Shown: positions 2,523-23,793, counted from the stretch's first letter. The stretch is 64,000 nucleotides of DNA from Oscillospiraceae bacterium (GCA_015064315.1 SVSL01000001.1:15801-79800), one strand, 5' to 3'. Made by a program: numbers and translations. The notes: generated by a model from the letters alone, not told the origin.

Positions 2523-3973
2523 GATTCAAGATTCTCCTTTCCGTTTTTGAGCGCCTCCAAGGAAGCCGTCAAAAGCTCTTCGGCAAGAACGGGATCGGCT
2601 CTTCCGCCGCTCTCCGCCATAATTTTTCCTTGCAGAGAACGCATTGCCGCATATCTTCCATGGAGCCAATCCTTCACTGCCTGCGGCATTTTTTGCATGG
2701 CGTTTTCCACCAGCAGCTGCAGTTGATCCGTATCGCGGATCTGCGCCAAGCCCTCCTTTGCAACGGTGTCGGCAGGCGAAAAATCATCCTTGATCAACCG
2801 CGACAAAAGCTTTTTTGCGGTGGCACTGTTGATCTCTCCCTCGCCCAAAAGCTCGGCAAGCTCCGCAAGTCTTGTCCAGGAAACGGGAGAGGAAAAGGGC
2901 TCGGAGGCGCAATGGGGCAAAAGCTCGGTCAAAAGCAGATTCAAGGCAATTTGAGGGAATCTCGTTTTTGCGGCGGCTGCCTCAAAAAAGTCTGATAACA
3001 AAAGCTCCGCCGAAAGGATCTCGGCATCCTTTTGCCGAATGCCGTAGGTCTCTGTCAAGCGTGTGATCTGGGCAGCTGGCAATTCGGGAAGTGTATCGGC
3101 AATTCTTTCGATCTCCTCCTCCGAAAGCCTGATGGCAAGCAGATCGGGCTCGGGAAGATAGCGATAATCCTCAGCGCTTTCCTTGGTTCGCATCAGCTCG
3201 GTAACGCCCTTTACGGAATCAAACCGACGGGTCTCCATGCAAATCTCTTCTCCACGCCTCAAAAGCTCTGTTTGACGGGTAATTTCATAATGGATCGCCT
3301 TTTCCACAAAGGCGAAGGAATTGATGTTTTTGATCTCCACGCGTGTTCCAAACGCCTCGCTTCCCATCTCTCGCAGAGAAATATTCACGTCACAACGCAA
3401 GGATCCCTCCTGCATTTTGCAATCCGAAACACCGCATCGAGAAAGGATGGCGCGAAGTGCTTTGAGATATGCCGCAGCCTCAGCCCCCGAACGCAGGTCG
3501 GGCTTGGAAACGATTTCGATCAAGGGAACGCCGCAGCGGTTGAAATCGATGCGAGTCTCATTCCCCGCATGGATCAGCTTGCCCGCATCCTCCTCAATAT
3601 GGATGCGCGCAATCCCGATCTCGCGCGAAAATCCGTCCATAGAAACGGTAAGTCTTCCGTTTTTGCAAAGGGGAATCTCATTTTGCGAGATCTGATACGC
3701 CTTGGGAAGATCGGGATAGAAATAGTGCTTTCGGTCGGTGCGACTCTGCCGTGCGATCTCACAATTCAAGGCAAGCCCTGCCCGAATTGCCAGCTCCACG
3801 GCGTGTCGGTTGAGAATGGGAAGGGTTCCCGGATGCCCCATACAAACGGGACAGCATTGGGTATTTTGGGGGGCGCCAAAGGTGGTGGGACAGGCGCAAA
3901 AGATCTTGGACGCGGTTTTCAGCTCGGCATGAACCTCCAAGCCGATGATCGCTTCGTATGAAATCTCACTCAT
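2519..3973 (-). CDS. gatB: Asp/Glu-tRNA(Asn/Gln) amidotransferase subunit B
   Basis: MSEISYEAIIGLEVHAELKT...CPVCMGHPGTLP... is typical GatB. ATG 3973 was chosen over the ORF-track start at 4021. It overlaps the gatA stop by 8 nt, and the gene order is gatC-gatA-gatB. Confidence 0.9.
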   Translation of the reverse strand: MSEISYEAIIGLEVHAELKTASKIFCACPTTFGAPQNTQCCPVCMGHPGTLPILNRHAVELAIRAGLALNCEIARQSRTDRKHYFYPDLPKAYQISQNEIPLCKNGRLTVSMDGFSREIGIARIHIEEDAGKLIHAGNETRIDFNRCGVPLIEIVSKPDLRSGAEAAAYLKALRAILSRCGVSDCKMQEGSLRCDVNISLREMGSEAFGTRVEIKNINSFAFVEKAIHYEITRQTELLRRGEEICMETRRFDSVKGVTELMRTKESAEDYRYLPEPDLLAIRLSEEEIERIADTLPELPAAQITRLTETYGIRQKDAEILSAELLLSDFFEAAAAKTRFPQIALNLLLTELLPHCASEPFSSPVSWTRLAELAELLGEGEINSATAKKLLSRLIKDDFSPADTVAKEGLAQIRDTDQLQLLVENAMQKMPQAVKDWLHGRYAAMRSLQGKIMAESGGRADPVLAEELLTASLEALKNGKENLES

Positions 3974-5393
3974 GGCTTGCCTCCTCCAAAATTCTCGCCG
4001 CCGCAAGCAAAAGCGCCTCACGGCAAGGGGCGGCAGTCAGTTGAATACCAAGGGGCGTTCCGTAGGCACTTGTTCCAAAGGGAACCGAAAGAGCAGGATT
4101 GCCCGCAAGATTGGCATAAACCGCACAAAGATCGGCTTCCCTTCTTTCGGCAGGCGTCTGCTTGGAACCTCTTGGGAAGGCCCCCGTGGGCGAGGTGGGA
4201 TTGAGGATCAGGTCAAAGGAGGAAAAAATCTCCTCCATCCGCTCTCTGATCTGATTTCTCGCGTAAGCAGCACGCTCCAGATAGATCTTGCGGCGTTCCT
4301 CAGTCAGCATACAGGTGCCGAAAAGAATACGGCGCTTGACCTCCATACCAAAGCCCTCCCCACGGCTGTTGGCGTAAAGATCGAACAGCGTATCGGCGTT
4401 TTTGCTTCTTCTTCCGTATCGGATGCCGTCGAATCTTGCTAAGTTTGAGGATGCCTCCACGGCGGAAAGCACACAGTATGCCGCAAGCGCGATCTGTGGC
4501 GACGGAAGGCTGATGGTTTGGATCTCGGCACCTTGCTTTGAAAAAGCATGGATTGCCCTTTGCACCGAAACACGAACCTCCTCCGAAACGCCTTCCCCCT
4601 CCAAAAGCTCTTTTACAACCGCGATCCGCAAGGGGTGGCGTAAAAGAGGCGTTTGCTGTGGATAATCCAGCGTGGTGGCATCGTGCGGATCCTTTCCCAC
4701 AAGCGCCGAAAAAACGGTCTCTGCGTCCGCGGCGTTTCGCGTCAGCAAGCCCACACAGTCAAAGGAGGGGGCAAAGCCGATAAGTCCATAGCGTGAAATG
4801 GCTCCGTAGGTCGGCTTGAGTCCGACCACACCGCAGAAGGCGGCGGGCTGGCGCACCGATCCTCCCGTATCACTTCCAAGGGCAAATGGCACCTCCAATG
4901 CCGCAACGGCGGCGGCAGATCCGCTTGACGAGCCTCCCGAAACCAGCGCGGGATGCAAGGGGTTAGCGGTTGCGCCAAAGATCGAAAGCTCTCCCGTAGA
5001 CCCCATGGCAAACTCGTCCATATTCAATTTTCCCAGTAAAACCGCGCCGCTCTCACGAAGGCGTGATACCGCAGTGGCATCATAGGGCGCGATATAATTT
5101 TCCAAAATTCTCGATGCGCAGGTAGTGCGCATTCCCTTTACACAGAGGTTATCCTTCACGGCATAGGGGATGCCGTCAAGCTGGCTCAACGCTGCTCCTC
5201 TGCGGCGTCTTTCGTCCGATGCCCAAGCCGCCTCCAATGCGCCCTTTGCATCGATCCATACAAATGCATTGACAGAAGCGTCATTCTCCGCAATGCGCTC
5301 AAGATAGGCATTGGTTAAGTCAACGGAGGAATATTCCCCTGCCTGCAATGCATTGATATGCTCCTGTAACGTGTATTCGATCAGCTTCTTCAT
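3966..5393 (-). CDS. gatA: Asp/Glu-tRNA(Asn/Gln) amidotransferase subunit A
   Basis: 475 aa with an amidase signature (GGSSSGSAAAVAA, GSDTGGSVRQPA). Flanked by gatC and gatB. Confidence 0.93.
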   Translation of the reverse strand: MKKLIEYTLQEHINALQAGEYSSVDLTNAYLERIAENDASVNAFVWIDAKGALEAAWASDERRRRGAALSQLDGIPYAVKDNLCVKGMRTTCASRILENYIAPYDATAVSRLRESGAVLLGKLNMDEFAMGSTGELSIFGATANPLHPALVSGGSSSGSAAAVAALEVPFALGSDTGGSVRQPAAFCGVVGLKPTYGAISRYGLIGFAPSFDCVGLLTRNAADAETVFSALVGKDPHDATTLDYPQQTPLLRHPLRIAVVKELLEGEGVSEEVRVSVQRAIHAFSKQGAEIQTISLPSPQIALAAYCVLSAVEASSNLARFDGIRYGRRSKNADTLFDLYANSRGEGFGMEVKRRILFGTCMLTEERRKIYLERAAYARNQIRERMEEIFSSFDLILNPTSPTGAFPRGSKQTPAERREADLCAVYANLAGNPALSVPFGTSAYGTPLGIQLTAAPCREALLLAAARILEEASHE

Positions 5394-19791: not shown

Positions 19792-20886
19792 TCAAAGGTC
19801 GTCGTCCTCAACAACCGTGTTCATAGACTCGGCTCTTTGACGTTGCGCATCCTCGTACAGAGTTGCGCCCAGCTCCTGCTCCAGCGCATTCTTGTCCTTG
19901 CCGCGCTGACGTCTGGTAATACGGTTTCTCACGTTGGTTCTCACCTTGGATTCCTCGGACTTGTCCACAACGCTGATAAAGATATCCTCAAGGCTCATAC
20001 CAAGCGATTCCATACCAATGATCGCCCAGCCTCTCTCCGCCAGGGTGAAGAAAAGCTTTTTGCGGATATCCACGCCAAATTCGCTCTCCACCATGTAGGT
20101 GTAAGCATCTCCGTCACGCTCCGCCAAAGCCTCCACGTAGGAGATTCCCTGCATATTCTTGAGCAGTGCGAGGATGTCCTTCTGAGGACCCGAGATCTTG
20201 ATGTTAAAGCGGCGGTTGTTTGCCACCACGTTGGAAATGTTCTCGGTCTTCTCGTTTGCAACGATCTTACCCTTATTGATGATGATAATACGGTCGCAAA
20301 CCGCCTGAACCTCCTGCAGGATATGGGTGGAAAGAATAACGGTGTGATCCTTTCCGAGGCCGCGGATCAGGTTACGGATCTCAATGATCTGCTTGGGGTC
20401 AAGACCTACGGTGGGCTCGTCAAAGATAATAACCTTGGGGTTTCCGATCAGCGCCTGCGCGATCCCCACTCTTTGGCGGTATCCCTTGGACAGGGTGCGG
20501 ATCACCTTACGGTACACGTCCTTGATCTTTACGGTCTCACAAACCTGCTCCAGGTGAGCGGCGCGATCCAGCTTACAGCCCTTGAGCTCGTAATTGAAGT
20601 TGAGATACTCCTCTACGGTCATATCCAGATAGAGCGGAGGCTGCTCGGGAAGATATCCGATCAGCTTCTTTGCGCCGATGGGATTGCTCAGGATGTCGAT
20701 CCCGGCAATGGATGCCTTACCTGCGGTAGAGGAAAGATATCCCGTGAGGATGTTCATGGTCGTACTCTTGCCCGCACCGTTGGGGCCAAGGAAGCCGACG
20801 ATCTCGCCGGTCTCCACCTCAAAGCTGATGTCGTCCACCGCACAGTGGGATCCGTAGTTTTTTACAAGATGTTCAATTTTTATCAT
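19792..20886 (-). CDS. ABC transporter ATP-binding protein (GldA-like) with charged C-terminal extension
   Basis: Walker A GPNGAGKST, signature LSKGYRQR and Walker B IIFDEPTVGLD are present. About 130 aa follow the NBD, ending in the acidic tail VVEDDDL. Confidence 0.9.
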   Translation of the reverse strand: MIKIEHLVKNYGSHCAVDDISFEVETGEIVGFLGPNGAGKSTTMNILTGYLSSTAGKASIAGIDILSNPIGAKKLIGYLPEQPPLYLDMTVEEYLNFNYELKGCKLDRAAHLEQVCETVKIKDVYRKVIRTLSKGYRQRVGIAQALIGNPKVIIFDEPTVGLDPKQIIEIRNLIRGLGKDHTVILSTHILQEVQAVCDRIIIINKGKIVANEKTENISNVVANNRRFNIKISGPQKDILALLKNMQGISYVEALAERDGDAYTYMVESEFGVDIRKKLFFTLAERGWAIIGMESLGMSLEDIFISVVDKSEESKVRTNVRNRITRRQRGKDKNALEQELGATLYEDAQRQRAESMNTVVEDDDL

Positions 20887-21194
20887 GGAGAACAGAATTT
20901 CCTTTCTGTATTTTTTCTCTTTTGAAAAAGAAGGCAGTCTTTTTCACAATACATATTATTATATCACGTACATATGAACACATTATGAATACAACAAAAA
21001 ATATCAATTTTCCGTTTGAAAAATATGTGTTTTTTTCGTGTATTTTTTCAAAAAAAGGACCGTTTTTATTTTTGAAAAACTTTTTTGCTTCCCTGCATAA
21101 AGACGGCAGAAAAGGCAAAAATAAAATCAGCAGATTCGCGCGGGATTTTTCAGATCCTACGCGTGGCAATTTCATAAAAAAAGGAGTTCCGATT

Positions 21195-21911
21195 ATGTGG
21201 AAAAAATGGAAAGAATCCAAACTTTGTAGAAAGCTGAAGCAGGTAAAGATCAATCGCGTGGTCTATCTCTCCGCGGTCGTCATTCTCTTGGCGCTGGCGG
21301 TAGTGCTTGCCATTACCGCGGCAACCAATCGCGCAAAGCGCACCGAAGAGCCTACCCAGACCCCCGGCGGCATCACCACGTCCACCACCGAGCCCTCCCC
21401 CTCCGCTCCGGGCGATAACAACGATCAGCCCTCTGCCCTCATTCCCGAAATGTCAGCCCCCGTCTCCGGCAAGCTCTCCAAAGCGCACAGCGTAGACGTT
21501 CAGGTCTTTTCCGAGACCATGAAGGACTATCGCGTGCATCTGGGAATCGACATTCACACCGAAGCCAATGCCCAGGTTTTTGCGGTGGCAGACGGTAAGG
21601 TCTCCAAGATCTGGCAGGACCCCATGATGGGCTGGTGCGTTGCTCTCTCCCACAGCGGCGAATGTGTTACGGTCTATAAGAACCTGGCAAAGGAGCTTGC
21701 CGAAGGGCTTATCGAGGGCATCGCCGTGAAAAAGGGTCAGCTTCTGGGTCAGGTTGGTGACACGGCGCTCATGGAGATCGCGGACGAGCCTCATCTGCAC
21801 ATGGAAATGACGGTCAAGGGCTTGCAGGTCGATCCCATGGATTATTTCAGCCAAGCGGTGATCGCAAGCCTCTCCAAGGACACTGCGTTTGAGGAAGAAG
21901 CGGGAAAATAA
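21195..21911 (+). CDS. M23 family metallopeptidase, membrane anchored
   Basis: ATG 21195 follows an AAAGGAG RBS. The protein has an N-terminal TM (VVYLSAVVILLALAVVLAITAA), a Pro/Thr/Ser linker and M23 motifs (HLGIDI, LHMEM). The upstream part of the ORF-track ORF (20922-21194) is AT-rich promoter DNA. Confidence 0.85.
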   Translation: MWKKWKESKLCRKLKQVKINRVVYLSAVVILLALAVVLAITAATNRAKRTEEPTQTPGGITTSTTEPSPSAPGDNNDQPSALIPEMSAPVSGKLSKAHSVDVQVFSETMKDYRVHLGIDIHTEANAQVFAVADGKVSKIWQDPMMGWCVALSHSGECVTVYKNLAKELAEGLIEGIAVKKGQLLGQVGDTALMEIADEPHLHMEMTVKGLQVDPMDYFSQAVIASLSKDTAFEEEAGK

Positions 21912-21946
21912 AAAAGCCCCTCAAGGAAGCATAAAAACCGGCAATG

Positions 21947-22063
21947 GGAATCCGAACCCAAATTTGCGCTCCTTAGCCAAGTCAATTTTTTCTTCCGCGA
22001 GTCCGCGCAAATTAAGCAAATCGCAAGCGATTGCAGAAACCTATTCTTGGGTCATCTGCTCCA
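21947..22063. repeat. structured element A, paralog of element B, ending in a 13-nt copy of the tRNA-Gly 3' end (GTCATCTGCTCCA)
   Basis: Layout is GGGAATCCGAACCC, a 9-bp stem (AATTTGCGC/GCGCAAATT), an 8-nt palindromic hairpin (GCAATCGC..GCGATTGC) and GTCATCTGCTCCA. It is collinear with 23466-23551, with compensatory stem changes. Confidence 0.5.
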
Positions 22064-22102
22064 ATAGGAATGCCCCGACCGATTGGTCGGGGCATTCCTA
22101 TT
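22063..22102 (+). terminator. 18-bp perfect hairpin downstream of the M23 peptidase gene and element A (no clear U-tract)
   Basis: AATAGGAATGCCCCGACC-GATT-GGTCGGGGCATTCCTATT. There is no T-run on either side, so its role as a terminator is uncertain. Confidence 0.45.
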
Positions 22103-22229
22103 GTGAGTAATCTAAAATTTTGATACCTTTTTATCGTGGGTGCAAAATTTAGTATTATAGGTGCATTTCGTGAAAGGTGTTGCACCCATTTTTGTAGGCT
22201 TTACTTTAATAATACGAAACAACTACGTA

Positions 22230-23051
22230 CTAATCAGGTCTTGGATTATAAGCATAAAAAGCAGAGGCTGAAAGGGGTTGTGGGTCATTTGAATCATCAC
22301 TAATATACGTTGATGGGTCTATTGAAAAATATAAAAAGTCTCCCTTGTACTCGCTTAACTTTACAAATTCCATATTCTCGTTGATGATTACATATTCTGT
22401 TGTGTAAGCACAGTTTTTAATACGTTCTATACCGCCGCTTTCATTTCTTACGATATCTTCATCACTAACACCACGAATTTTTGTGTACATATAAAAAGTA
22501 TTTATAACTTCACCCTCAAAACATATTTGAGAAGGATAAGTTTCTAAAGACACAAACTCACCGTTGTGCTTGAAGACCAATTTATCGCCTGCTACTAAAG
22601 GAATTTTAGATTCTTCAAATTCAACGTTAAAAAAGAATCCATAGTTGAAGAGTTCAGTAACAGTATTCTCTACTATTCTTCCATAATCATAGGTTACGGT
22701 AAAAGCGTCCGTATGTTCGCTATGATATTTGAAGTAATGAATACCAAAGGAATCAAGGTCGCTGATTTTTATTTTTCCTTCGGCAAGCGCATCTTGCACA
22801 GTTTGCTCTGTCCCATCATTATAGTAAACGATAACATACATACTTCGAATGCTCGAAAAGTAATAATCGTAAGTATCATCTGAGTAGAACAACTCCAAAG
22901 CATCATCTGTAGGAAGATTATCTCTTTCTGCTATGTCTATTATGTTTTCGATTTCAACTGATTGCTTTGTTGCGGGATTGTTTAATACATTGCAACCAAC
23001 GAAAACAAACAAAGTGAATAGACATAAAAGAATAGCTATCACTTTTTTCAT
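22230..23051 (-). CDS. orphan lipoprotein in an AT-rich islet
   Basis: 273 aa. The signal peptide plus lipobox is MKKVIAILLCLFTLFVFVGC. The protein is Tyr/Asn/Glu-rich and its codon and base composition is visibly AT-rich compared with the neighbours. No family recognised. Confidence 0.7.
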   Translation of the reverse strand: MKKVIAILLCLFTLFVFVGCNVLNNPATKQSVEIENIIDIAERDNLPTDDALELFYSDDTYDYYFSSIRSMYVIVYYNDGTEQTVQDALAEGKIKISDLDSFGIHYFKYHSEHTDAFTVTYDYGRIVENTVTELFNYGFFFNVEFEESKIPLVAGDKLVFKHNGEFVSLETYPSQICFEGEVINTFYMYTKIRGVSDEDIVRNESGGIERIKNCAYTTEYVIINENMEFVKLSEYKGDFLYFSIDPSTYISDDSNDPQPLSASAFYAYNPRPD

Positions 23052-23255
23052 AACATTTACTCCTTTAAAATATCTTGTTTTGAGATATTAAATAATTTTT
23101 ATCGGTGAGTTTATTATAGCATAAAATCCAACCAAAGTCAAGGCGTTTCTTCGGCAATTCAATAATTGAACGATACCCCATAAGTTGAACGAAAGTGGTA
23201 TAAAGTGAACGATTTATCTTTGGCTGCTAAAAACAAAAAGACTTGCAGATTTAAT

Positions 23256-23417
23256 CACTTTCGCAGAAAGTGTATATAATCAGACACGAAGTGGCTGGAT
23301 ATCATCAATTTCGCAGAAATTGCATATCATCAAGTCGCAGAGTAATGCACCTTCGGTGATGATATACTCGCCTCAGGCGAGTTATACATTCAATGATATA
23401 CCAAGTCTGCGACTTGG
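23256..23417. repeat. array of short 7-bp-stem/3-nt-loop palindromes
   Basis: CACTTTC-GCA-GAAAGTG (23256-23272), CAATTTC-GCA-GAAATTG (23306-23322), CACC-TTC-GGTG (23348-23358), ACTCGCC-TCA-GGCGAGT (23366-23382) and CCAAGTC-TGC-GACTTGG (23401-23417). ATATAATCA/ATATCATCA-like spacers recur between them. Confidence 0.5.
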
Positions 23418-23420
23418 ATA

Positions 23421-23452
23421 AAAAAAGTCGTATCAAAATGATACGACTTTTT
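23421..23452 (-). terminator. rho-independent terminator directly 3' of element B
   Basis: GTCGTATCA-AAA-TGATACGAC is a 9-bp stem flanked by an A-run and a T-run. On the minus strand it follows ...GTCATCTGCTCCA exactly as the terminator at 23585-23616 follows the true tRNA. Confidence 0.6.
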
Positions 23453-23565
23453 TGGAGCAGATGACGGGAATCTGAACCCAAACGTGCGGTAACATGCGGT
23501 TATTATCCAAAGCCAGATATGCCGCACGTTCAAGCAAAGCTTGCGCTTTGCGGGGTTCAGATTCG
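23453..23565 (-). repeat. structured element B with a tRNA-Gly-like T-arm/acceptor/CCA 3' end (5'-truncated tRNA-like)
   Basis: The first 27 nt (TGGAGCAGATGACGGGAATCTGAACCC) match the 3' end of the tRNA at 23621 apart from one extra T. A 12-bp closing stem (GAATCTGAACCC/GGGTTCAGATTC) encloses a 9-bp hairpin and a 7-bp hairpin whose loop is GCAA on the minus strand. No 5' acceptor strand (GCAGATG) is present. Confidence 0.5.
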
Positions 23566-23584
23566 TAAAATGAACTCTAAAAAA

Positions 23585-23616
23585 GCCAAGGGAGCCTCGT
23601 TGAGGCTCCCTTGGCT
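23585..23616 (-). terminator. rho-independent terminator of tRNA-Gly
   Basis: GCCAAGGGAGCCTC-GTTG-GAGGCTCCCTTGGC is a 14-bp stem with a T-run on the minus strand, immediately 3' of the tRNA CCA end. Confidence 0.75.
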
Positions 23617-23620
23617 TTTT

Positions 23621-23694
23621 TGGAGCAGATGACGGGAATCGAACCCGCGTATTCGGCTTGGGAAGCGGACACTCTGCCATTGAGTTACATCTGC
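23621..23694 (-). tRNA. tRNA-Gly (anticodon CCC), CCA encoded
   Basis: The minus strand reads GCAGATGTAACTCAATGGCAGAGTGTCCGCTTCCCAAGCCGAATACGCGGGTTCGATTCCCGTCATCTGCTCCA. It folds by hand into a cloverleaf with a 7-bp acceptor stem, a 4-bp D stem, anticodon loop TTCCCAA and T-loop TTCGATT. There is one C-C mismatch in the anticodon stem. Confidence 0.85.
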
Positions 23695-23793
23695 GTGAGC
23701 GCCCCTTTATTATAATACACTTTCCCAAAAAAGTCAAGTATCTGTCTCCAACTTTTTCTTATTTTTCCTCGTCAAAAAATTCGATTTTTCGCC

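Follow-up and report, generated by a model that had tools for sequence, protein, structure and literature searches.

Two hairpin-rich repeats beside a tRNA-Gly gene of an Oscillospiraceae bacterium are copies of an apparently undescribed family of units flanking tRNA and tmRNA genes

The DNA analysed here comprises 64,000 nucleotides (nt) from an Oscillospiraceae bacterium (GCA_015064315.1, SVSL01000001.1:15801-79800); this whole stretch is referred to as the window, and positions are counted from its first letter. Its subject here is a pair of related non-coding segments, units A and B, on the 3′ side of a tRNA-Gly(CCC) gene. This gene was called by ARAGORN and Rfam on the minus strand at 23621-23694, the same gene as in an earlier note on this DNA, and it is the sole such gene called in the window. 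It has a promoter-like site on the minus strand (23709-23737; TTGACT, 17-nt spacer, TATAAT) and a bidirectional terminator at 23575-23625 with arms at 23575-23598 and 23602-23625. Beyond the terminator follow unit B, an AT-rich islet with a lipoprotein-like open reading frame (ORF), and unit A, whose outer flank is directly preceded by an M23 peptidase gene with its stop codon at 21911. Other neighbors in the window are an endonuclease/exonuclease/phosphatase (EEP) gene and an ispH-S1 fusion gene. The GC content amounts to ~30-38% between A and B versus ~50-56% in the flanks. No copies of the unit other than A and B were found in the 64-kb window.

A direct-repeat search placed the 26-mer CTTTTTTGGAGCAGATGACGGGAATC at 23447-23472 and again at 23615-23640 in the tRNA gene, and past it B reads T-GAACCC where the tRNA reads GAACCC. 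Thus B opens with a copy of the tRNA 3′ end plus one inserted T, as the earlier note had claimed. Also the lack of a 5′ acceptor strand in B was seen again, and the D-arm and the anticodon arm are missing as well. Within the identity of 23447-23472, the part at 23453-23472 (TGGAGCAGATGACGGGAATC on the plus strand; feature on the minus strand) forms an outer, att-like block which is a direct repeat of nucleotides 57-76 of the tRNA-Gly. The core of B (23466-23564; 70.3 bits with an nhmmer profile) folds into a three-way junction with a z-score of about −6 on either strand. Its closing arm is formed by GGGAATCTGAACCC (23466-23479) pairing with GGGTTCAGATTC (23553-23564); the junction itself is closed by GAATCTGAACCC/GGGTTCAGATTC, and the acceptor copies lengthen the arms. 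The two enclosed stems are P3 (23481-23489 with 23522-23530) and P2 (23534-23551). On the right, a degenerate sense acceptor strand with CCA (GTAAAATGAACTCTA, 23565-23579, plus strand) was recognized by comparison with units that keep a perfect copy.

Unit A is collinear with the core of B according to both the repeat search and nhmmer, as proposed before, with the core beginning at 21946 instead of 21947. Its left arm GGGAATCCGAACCC (21946-21959) corresponds to the tRNA T-arm in antisense, enlarged by one base. In the long stem P3 (21961-22013), AATTTGCGC at 21961-21969 pairs with GCGCAAATT at 22005-22013 around a 35-nt loop; the counterpart in B is AACGTGCGG/CCGCACGTT. Both stems are perfect and differ by three compensated changes, in agreement with the three covarying pairs described earlier. 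The P3 haplotype of A is also present in loci L009, L017, L019, L020, and L011. The short hairpin P2 of A (22016-22034) reads GCAAATCG-CAAG-CGATTGC; both short hairpins are there as described, except that the one of A contains a bulged A that had been left out. In place of the expected right T-arm copy, A has a 16-nt spacer, followed by a sense copy of the tRNA-Gly acceptor 3′ strand with CCA (GTCATCTGCTCCA, 22051-22063, plus strand; inverted-repeat matches). A perfect terminator-type hairpin, CAATAGGAATGCCCCGACC/GGTCGGGGCATTCCTATTG, covers 22062-22103 (inverted-repeat search). The same ending is found in the A-like unit of L009, whose hairpin opens with CCAATA like that of A. Folded alone, A is no better than shuffled sequences, since the closing arm is absent. 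Its outer flank (21912-21945) is decayed. A weak A-run/hairpin there can be read as a minus-strand terminator (terminator-like site, 21930-21916), and what is left of an antisense acceptor copy (..CCGGCAAT) is degenerate; the position is that of the acceptor copy and terminator left of other units.

The sense acceptor copy also accounts for the inverted 13-mers which had been reported to flank the AT-rich segment. The repeat exists and has a length of 14 nt (GTCATCTGCTCCAA, 22051-22064 versus 23452-23465 and 23620-23633), with three matches seen against a mean of 0.14 in shuffles. In A, as in the A-like unit of L009, the acceptor copy has no mismatch. As this copy is built into the unit and its partners are the copy in B and the tRNA 3′ end, the idea that the 13-mers mark the ends of the AT-rich segment was not upheld; the inverted acceptor feature also occurs at L009, L011, L017, L019, and L042.

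For the detection of further copies we used the 23-nt pattern GGGAATCYGAACCCAAANNTGCG and an nhmmer profile of the unit, the latter in place of a covariance model. The pattern matched 16 loci in a genome collection with one genome per species, all of them in metagenome-assembled genomes (MAGs) of uncultured Clostridia, Eubacteriales or Oscillospiraceae. The profile gave 36 copies in 24 loci. A and B are therefore members of an apparently undescribed family of ~100-base, hairpin-rich non-coding repeats, and the further copies confirm that they are paralogous with compensatory stem changes; the possibility that no additional copies exist anywhere is thereby answered. The units carry no ORF, have a size of 93-115 nt and are uniform in architecture and orientation. 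Wherever a tRNA or transfer-messenger RNA (tmRNA) gene is on the locus, they lie 3′ of it on the opposite strand. The genes concerned are those for tRNA-Gly(CCC), Thr(GGT), Glu(TTC), Glu(CTC), Arg(CCT), and tmRNA, the last in L011, L019, and L020 (ARAGORN, Rfam). At 12 of the 16 pattern loci, the units are located just 3′ of and antisense to an intact gene. Among the profile copies, 54-60 nt separate the gene from the end of the nearest unit, except for one variant with 85 nt. Tandem arrays of two to four units with a period of ~160 nt are common. L009 and L012 contain no such gene, as the contig breaks off in a unit. At L006 and L021, the array abuts a 46-nt 3′ fragment of tRNA-Thr, after which a tyrosine integrase gene follows. 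There, an integrative element (L006 5571-6900, L021 4783-6090) with a tyrosine integrase of 379-398 amino acids sits in the anticodon loop of tRNA-Thr(GGT). It is an ordinary anticodon-loop island, and the units stayed with the native 3′ flank. A scan with a 45-nt pattern for the 3′ half of tRNA-Gly(CCC) revealed sites occupied by variant subfamilies, one degenerate unit and several sites with a terminator only, some of which turned out to be occupied by prophages.

In plus-strand order of the window, a unit starts with the antisense acceptor strand and CCA of the neighboring tRNA, decayed to a variable degree. The antisense T-arm, GGGAATC-T-GAACCC with its additional base, comes next, before stem P3 (AAAYKTGCGS), whose loop has 25-38 nt, and hairpin P2, which is 7-17 bp long and differs widely in sequence. 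On the right, the sense T-arm GGGTTC(A)GATTC precedes a sense acceptor copy with CCA and an A-run/hairpin/T-run terminator, beyond which lies the next unit or the real tRNA. The antisense and sense T-arm copies pair and close the junction that holds P3 and P2. This three-way junction was the minimum-free-energy fold in 20 of 22 units.

These features bear on the question whether A and B are ordinary pseudo-tRNAs, decayed tandem tRNA copies or chance similarities, for which the 27 nt of B matching the tRNA 3′ end would speak. Neither ARAGORN nor Rfam, used on the window at the gathering threshold and also at an E-value of 10, calls a tRNA or tmRNA at A or B. The 5′ acceptor strand, D-arm, and anticodon arm are missing, the same non-tRNA core stands behind six genes, and shuffle controls for the tRNA-copy matches gave 0-0.14 expected matches. 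This explanation is practically refuted. At the gathering threshold, the window and 14 loci yielded only tRNA, tmRNA, and one T-box, with no Rfam 15 family for the units; tmRNA, including the two-piece form, was called by ARAGORN and Rfam only as a neighboring gene and never within units. Four further identities were rejected by inspection: hammerhead and other small ribozymes (junctions of 1-3 nt, conserved cores missing), T-boxes (wrong order of elements), retrons or diversity-generating retroelements (no reverse transcriptase nearby), and ends of the IS200/IS605 type, which leave the tRNA-derived arms unexplained.

The pairing of the stems is conserved over their sequence. Six haplotypes of P3 were found, each fully complementary, and P2 takes the form of at least 12 different hairpins, all perfect. 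Stems were parsed directly and pair counts were taken on a cleaner alignment than that of MAFFT, on which RNAalifold recovered P3 only, since P1 and P2 were misaligned there. In this alignment, 90.4% of the cells pair versus 76.7% in shuffles, and 38 double-change cells were counted versus 12.5 expected, a number reached by 0 of 500 shuffles; in slid registers, 22-47% of the cells pair. The extra T-loop base is also compensated across the arms; most units have T/A here, those of the L022 type A/T. G-U pairs make up under 3% of the stem pairs. Tests of folding energy and G-U pairs for a favored strand were inconsistent: the strand antisense to the tRNA came out slightly ahead, but in tmRNA units it was the other one. 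The rarity of G-U pairs and the lack of a favored strand argue against an RNA gene on one strand and point to a constraint on the DNA or on both transcripts, or to palindrome-correcting mutation.

Another constant feature is the boundary of the direct repeat shared by the outer side of the unit and the tRNA. Its inner edge always lies directly after GGGAATC, between tRNA positions 56 and 57, and it reaches outward 8-26 nt with a variable outer edge. The tRNA-3′ direct repeat has 26 nt at B and 20 nt (nucleotides 57-76) in the pair L046/L047. The latter belong to contigs L046-L054, taken from IMG/VR and derived from one metagenome (3300045988). The single match in the viral collection was apparently host flank beside a prophage with a tyrosine integrase gene. 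The att identity block of this prophage is 20 nt long, extends from position 57 to the CCA of tmRNA and ends at the same GGGAATC edge. Its attP form was recovered in L048, L049, and L051, and relatives with an 88% identical integrase and other 20-nt tRNA blocks were present in L052-L054. One phage relative sits at a tRNA-Gly(CCC) gene identical to that of the window, with a P arm 87% identical over 490 nt (L040 7068-7558). As a side result, the phages of L046-L054 and L040 form a family with constant integrase and P arm and a swapped 20-nt att block (tRNA nucleotides 57-76); swapping the block lets this family target tmRNA, tRNA-Gly(CCC), and other tRNAs. Since the phage att block coincides with the repeated block, the unit-bearing genes are targets of T-loop integrases via the same block.

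Also, an empty and an occupied allele could be compared. In the empty alleles L047 and L050, the block GATTCCCATCACTTCCACCA is followed directly by TATGAAG, while the occupied allele L046 has the same block, a terminator and unit core (215 nt) and then GATTCCCATCATCTCCACCA before TATGAAG. Prophage and host flank are the same in both, so that the alleles differ by a precise indel of 215 nt flanked by the 20-nt block.

Evidence for exchange of whole cassettes came from two relatives, L028 and L016. These represent the same species, with 98.6% identity over 3.9 kb of flanks, but differ in the unit and terminator nearest the tRNA. Between them, the stretch from tRNA to unit is 91.6% identical and, within it, the part of the second unit ~86%. 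The proximal unit, terminator, and tRNA of L028 are 100% identical over 247 nt to window positions 23448-23694, while the EEP and ispH flanks of L028 and the window are 86.8% identical; at that rate, the 173 bases of this cassette outside the tRNA should show ~23 differences. This contrast indicates that unit plus terminator were exchanged between species as a block between two copies of the 3′ segment, and the tRNA terminator at 23575-23625 travels with unit B as one cassette. In comparison with L016 (2465-2733) and L028 (228-498), the segment comprising B, terminator, tRNA, and ~25 nt upstream (23447-23719) has the opposite orientation with respect to its M23 and EEP/ispH flanks. Two genes located between M23 and the tRNA in L016 are missing from the window. 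When the part fixed by the search pattern is left aside, B shares 66-67% identity with Glu(CTC) units and 45-49% with other Gly units, and Thr units are 77-88% identical across three MAGs. Judged by these identities, residence appears to be mostly vertical with occasional movement between tRNA types.

Taken together, we consider A and B as palindromic cassettes that recombine as DNA at the tRNA 3′ block, a reading to which we assign a probability of roughly 0.45. Units would accordingly act as DNA and not as a dedicated RNA gene, and direct repeats of tRNA nucleotides 57-76 would delimit each unit plus terminator as one cassette. At this block, recombination may insert, swap, duplicate, and delete cassettes. 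The agent would most likely be a T-loop tyrosine integrase acting in trans, with homologous recombination as an alternative or additional route, and phages might carry cassettes between hosts by using the outer block. If an integrase is at work, the tRNA would acquire another 3′ end and terminator with each event, while the old 3′ end would be pushed outward and decay. The integrity of the hairpins may be kept by selection or by palindrome-correcting mutation. In the window, A, terminator, B, terminator, and tRNA-Gly would then once have formed an array of two units, into which an AT-rich module of 1.35 kb was inserted. Of the readings offered in the earlier note, a MITE-like element (miniature inverted-repeat transposable element) with tRNA-derived ends and relics of tRNA-targeted integration come close to this proposal; a small structured RNA found no support.

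Several observations weigh against recombining cassettes. A tblastn search with four tyrosine recombinases found no integrase beside any array or in the 64-kb window. No autonomous parent with the same core or ends was detected in the 16 genome loci or in viral, phage, and plasmid collections, a search that was not exhaustive. No phage-borne copy was seen either, as the viral collection gave no match with the strict pattern and the one apparent host flank with a relaxed pattern, and blastn of B against phage and plasmid collections returned short tRNA-like matches only. A simple integrase model needs neither the inverted sense arm nor the extra T-loop base. Homologous recombination between the blocks could yield all rearrangements without a site-specific enzyme. 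The block variants in the empty and occupied alleles are compatible with insertion and deletion alike. Units cluster largely by tRNA type across MAGs, as expected if they have long been inherited vertically, and a function for the host would be compatible with this. Finally, the family is confined to the 3′ flank of stand-alone tRNA and tmRNA genes with the T-arm GGGTTCGATTCCC, but its apparent restriction to this T-arm sequence is partly a matter of ascertainment, since the search pattern fixed the left arm.

In a more specific and quite unlikely version, the units would be a new class of integrase parasites, i.e., gene-less, att-only mini-elements of ~150-215 bp in which two inverted copies of the tRNA 3′ block would permit a dumbbell fold resembling the target duplex. 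Their insertion would be the work of T-loop integrases; alternatively, phages of the T-loop kind would pick them up and deliver them via the outer instead of the inner block. The insertions would rewrite the 3′ end and terminator of tRNA or tmRNA genes, thereby building integron-like arrays of non-coding units.

In the main rival explanation, the covariation and the position behind genes are read as signs of a host element for transcription or RNA metabolism. Such an element might be a multi-hairpin bidirectional terminator or insulator that separates a strongly transcribed tRNA or tmRNA gene from its neighbor, or a structured trailer RNA arising by read-through, which could be matured like a tRNA precursor since the unit ends in acceptor, CCA, and terminator. 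The compensatory stem changes persist at orthologous loci over species-level divergence, with P2 of Thr units, for example, changing from T-A to C-G; the distance to the tRNA end stays the same (54-60 nt); the stems are almost all Watson-Crick, as a hairpin working in two directions would need; the hairpins past the tRNA of the window have A-runs and T-runs on both strands; and some arrays lie directly downstream of a convergent gene (M23 in the window, EEP in L016 and L028). The three-way junction core, however, has no U-run of its own, and conservation resides in the stems, with little of it in loops and junctions. No fitting promoter was found between terminator and unit on either strand. 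At L006 the outer neighbor is a divergent T-box gene, so that there is no convergent transcript to stop. Several tRNA-Gly(CCC) loci with the same 3′ half have no units, and presence, absence, and swaps of cassettes vary within one species. We therefore regard a host function as possible and rather on the improbable side.

Perfect stems, rare G-U pairs, and missing strand bias would likewise be expected from passive palindrome dynamics with neither enzyme nor function. Template switching at terminator hairpins would invert the tRNA 3′ end, quasi-palindrome correction would perfect the stems, and unequal crossing-over between 3′ blocks would build, shrink, and swap arrays. In line with this, nested inverted copies of the local tRNA acceptor end are present on both sides of the terminators, near-identical units differ by symmetric multi-base changes at hairpin tips (L007b versus L015a), microhomology deletions occur inside units (L025 versus L026), and units are most alike within one array, which fits unequal exchange. 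On the other hand, the same P3/P2 core and junction sequences stand behind six different genes, from which a single origin of the core and its movement between loci follow. The uniformity of architecture, size, and orientation described above, a repeat boundary exactly equal to the phage att block, and an identical cassette in a species with 87% identical flanking genes also make this explanation unlikely.

The AT-rich islet between A and B was analysed separately. The accessory module covers 22104-23420 on the minus strand, and its homology with L044 and L045 stops at 22101-22105, which is the foot of the terminator hairpin of A. It encodes a lipoprotein-like ORF of 273 amino acids (22230-23051, minus strand) with no Pfam family and a promoter-like site at 23113-23141 on the same strand. 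Upstream of the ORF, a minus-strand array of hairpins and ATATCAT repeats is located at ~23240-23420. In this array, the hairpins AAGTCGCAGACTT, CTCGCCTGAGGCGAG, AATTTCTGCGAAATT, and ACTTTCTGCGAAAGT alternate with a motif of 9-10 nt, TATATCAT(T/C) or its complement GATGATATC, at a period of 25 nt. A like array flanks the homologous gene in L045 (1-120 and 1290-1400), and L044 (1-145) has the variant motif GGATTTCATC. An A-run/hairpin/T-run with AAAAAAGTCGTATCA-AAA-TGATACGACTTTTTT was found at 23421-23453 by the inverted-repeat search. The earlier note had mentioned such a terminator beside B as belonging to B; the hairpin is there, but we assign it to the islet, because the gene in L045 has a like terminator, TATCC, and hairpin array. 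In each context of the islet gene, an own terminator follows after ...ATTACTCACA.

Homologs of the islet ORF with 87-92% identity occur in other contexts. In L044 the homolog adjoins a polyprenyl synthase. That of L043 (1043-5633), with 87% identity, is directly followed by a tyrosine recombinase of 329 amino acids and two large serine recombinases, so that elsewhere the islet gene travels with mobile DNA. By comparison of sequences, the islet is an independent, later accessory module of 1.35 kb, which according to the homology ends and the L045-like flank entered between the terminator of A and the outer block of B.

It had been proposed that the two elements bracket the islet, and one could regard A and B as the two ends (inverted 13-mers or attL/attR) of a single element with the AT-rich gene as cargo. 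The inverted 14-mer flanking the islet, its AT-richness, the recombinases next to its gene elsewhere, and the rearrangement of the region by a block inversion relative to L016 and L028 are in favor of this. It is contradicted by the synteny check, as L028 has unit, terminator, B, terminator, and tRNA without the islet, and thus B and another unit stand in an array without cargo. The islet homology in L044 and L045, in contexts unrelated to the window, excludes A and B, and the inverted acceptor copy is part of the unit in many loci without cargo. In L016, a different insert of 1.4 kb (2760-4140) sits in the loop of the inter-unit terminator, with L028 as the matching empty site; this insert encodes a C-terminal fragment of an ABC ATPase and a membrane protein of 184 amino acids, and CCTCTT or CTCTT (5-6 bp) is duplicated at both junctions. 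A functional bracketing of the islet is therefore rejected, and a single element with cargo is very improbable.

The 3′ ends of tRNA and tmRNA genes are classic landing sites of genomic islands, and short tRNA fragments found there are normally read as scars. The T-loop is a known sublocation of tyrosine integrases, and cis-mobilizable elements (CIMEs) are integrase-less, att-bounded derivatives; reportedly, the literature on ICESt1 and CIMEs describes such derivatives bounded by att sites. The units share with attL/attR repeats and CIMEs that tRNA 3′-end direct repeats flank inserted DNA, the inner boundary in the T-loop, the fixed orientation, the tandem accretion, and the outward decay of displaced 3′ ends, and the phage of metagenome 3300045988 uses the identical 20-nt block. 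They differ in that they are only ~150-215 bp long, have no gene and no identified cognate integrase, and contain non-random material, namely a covarying three-way junction and an inverted second copy of the att block. Like MITEs, the units are small, non-coding, strongly folded, and multicopy without an own transposase, with terminal inverted repeats of 12 bp, extendable to ~27 bp. Unlike in MITEs, these inverted repeats are copies of the 3′ end of the target tRNA, the units are confined to one position and orientation behind tRNA/tmRNA genes, and a flanking repeat of variable length (8-26 nt, constant only at its GGGAATC edge) takes the place of a target-site duplication of fixed length; there is no known parent insertion sequence.

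Repetitive extragenic palindromic (REP) sequences and bacterial interspersed mosaic elements (BIMEs) of enterobacteria are intergenic palindromes at gene 3′ ends with compensatory stems and possible roles as terminators or stabilizers, at the DNA and RNA level; REP sequences have a conserved head and are linked to a RAYT transposase. In comparison, the units are larger, branched, and strictly bound to the tRNA/tmRNA 3′ block, and no GTAG-type head was seen, nor a RAYT gene, at which no search was aimed. With integron cassettes and their folded attC sites, and with CTX-type elements, which enter dif as folded single strands, they have in common arrays of short units beside a fixed site and a structure conserved over sequence, and if single-stranded, the paired unit arms would rebuild the target-site duplex. 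In contrast to these systems, the units are without ORF, R/L boxes, and extrahelical bases, with no known link to IntI or Xer; no integron features were noticed in the unit loci, where no search was aimed at IntI or attC boxes. The hairpins between units and past the tRNA resemble intrinsic bidirectional terminators in their A-run/GC-stem/T-run order, whereas the unit core (P1/P2/P3) lacks a U-run and is homologous across genes, unlike ordinary terminators.

Elements of this kind did not come up in a full-text literature search. While repeats of tRNA fragments are familiar from integration sites, a cassette between them that is conserved, structured, arrayed, and free of genes is apparently undescribed. 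Here, the material between the tRNA fragments is not random and represents a conserved, covarying, arrayed structure exchanged between species. If mobilized by an integrase, the unit would be a minimal hitch-hiker on site-specific recombination and a marker of T-loop phage activity in uncultured gut Clostridia; if a host device, it would be a new type of module by which stand-alone tRNA genes are terminated or insulated. The repeats can also be mistaken for island boundaries or pseudo-tRNAs.

Some minor observations concern contigs and neighboring genes. The metagenome and MAG contigs L001, L002, L004, L005, L007, L009, and L012 end inside or beside units, which suggests that the repeats break metagenome assemblies. 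In L001 (1518-1788), a 1.8-kb contig from the Joint Genome Institute (JGI), A and the islet are joined, at window position 21886, to the 3′ end of a gene for a GGDEF-domain protein whose last codons (EEEAGK, stop) are those of the M23 peptidase gene in the window; either the coding sequence was truly rearranged within its end, or the assembly is chimeric. In the window itself, the GC content falls to 0.29 at 20850-21150, i.e., in the 5′ region of the M23 peptidase ORF and upstream of it.

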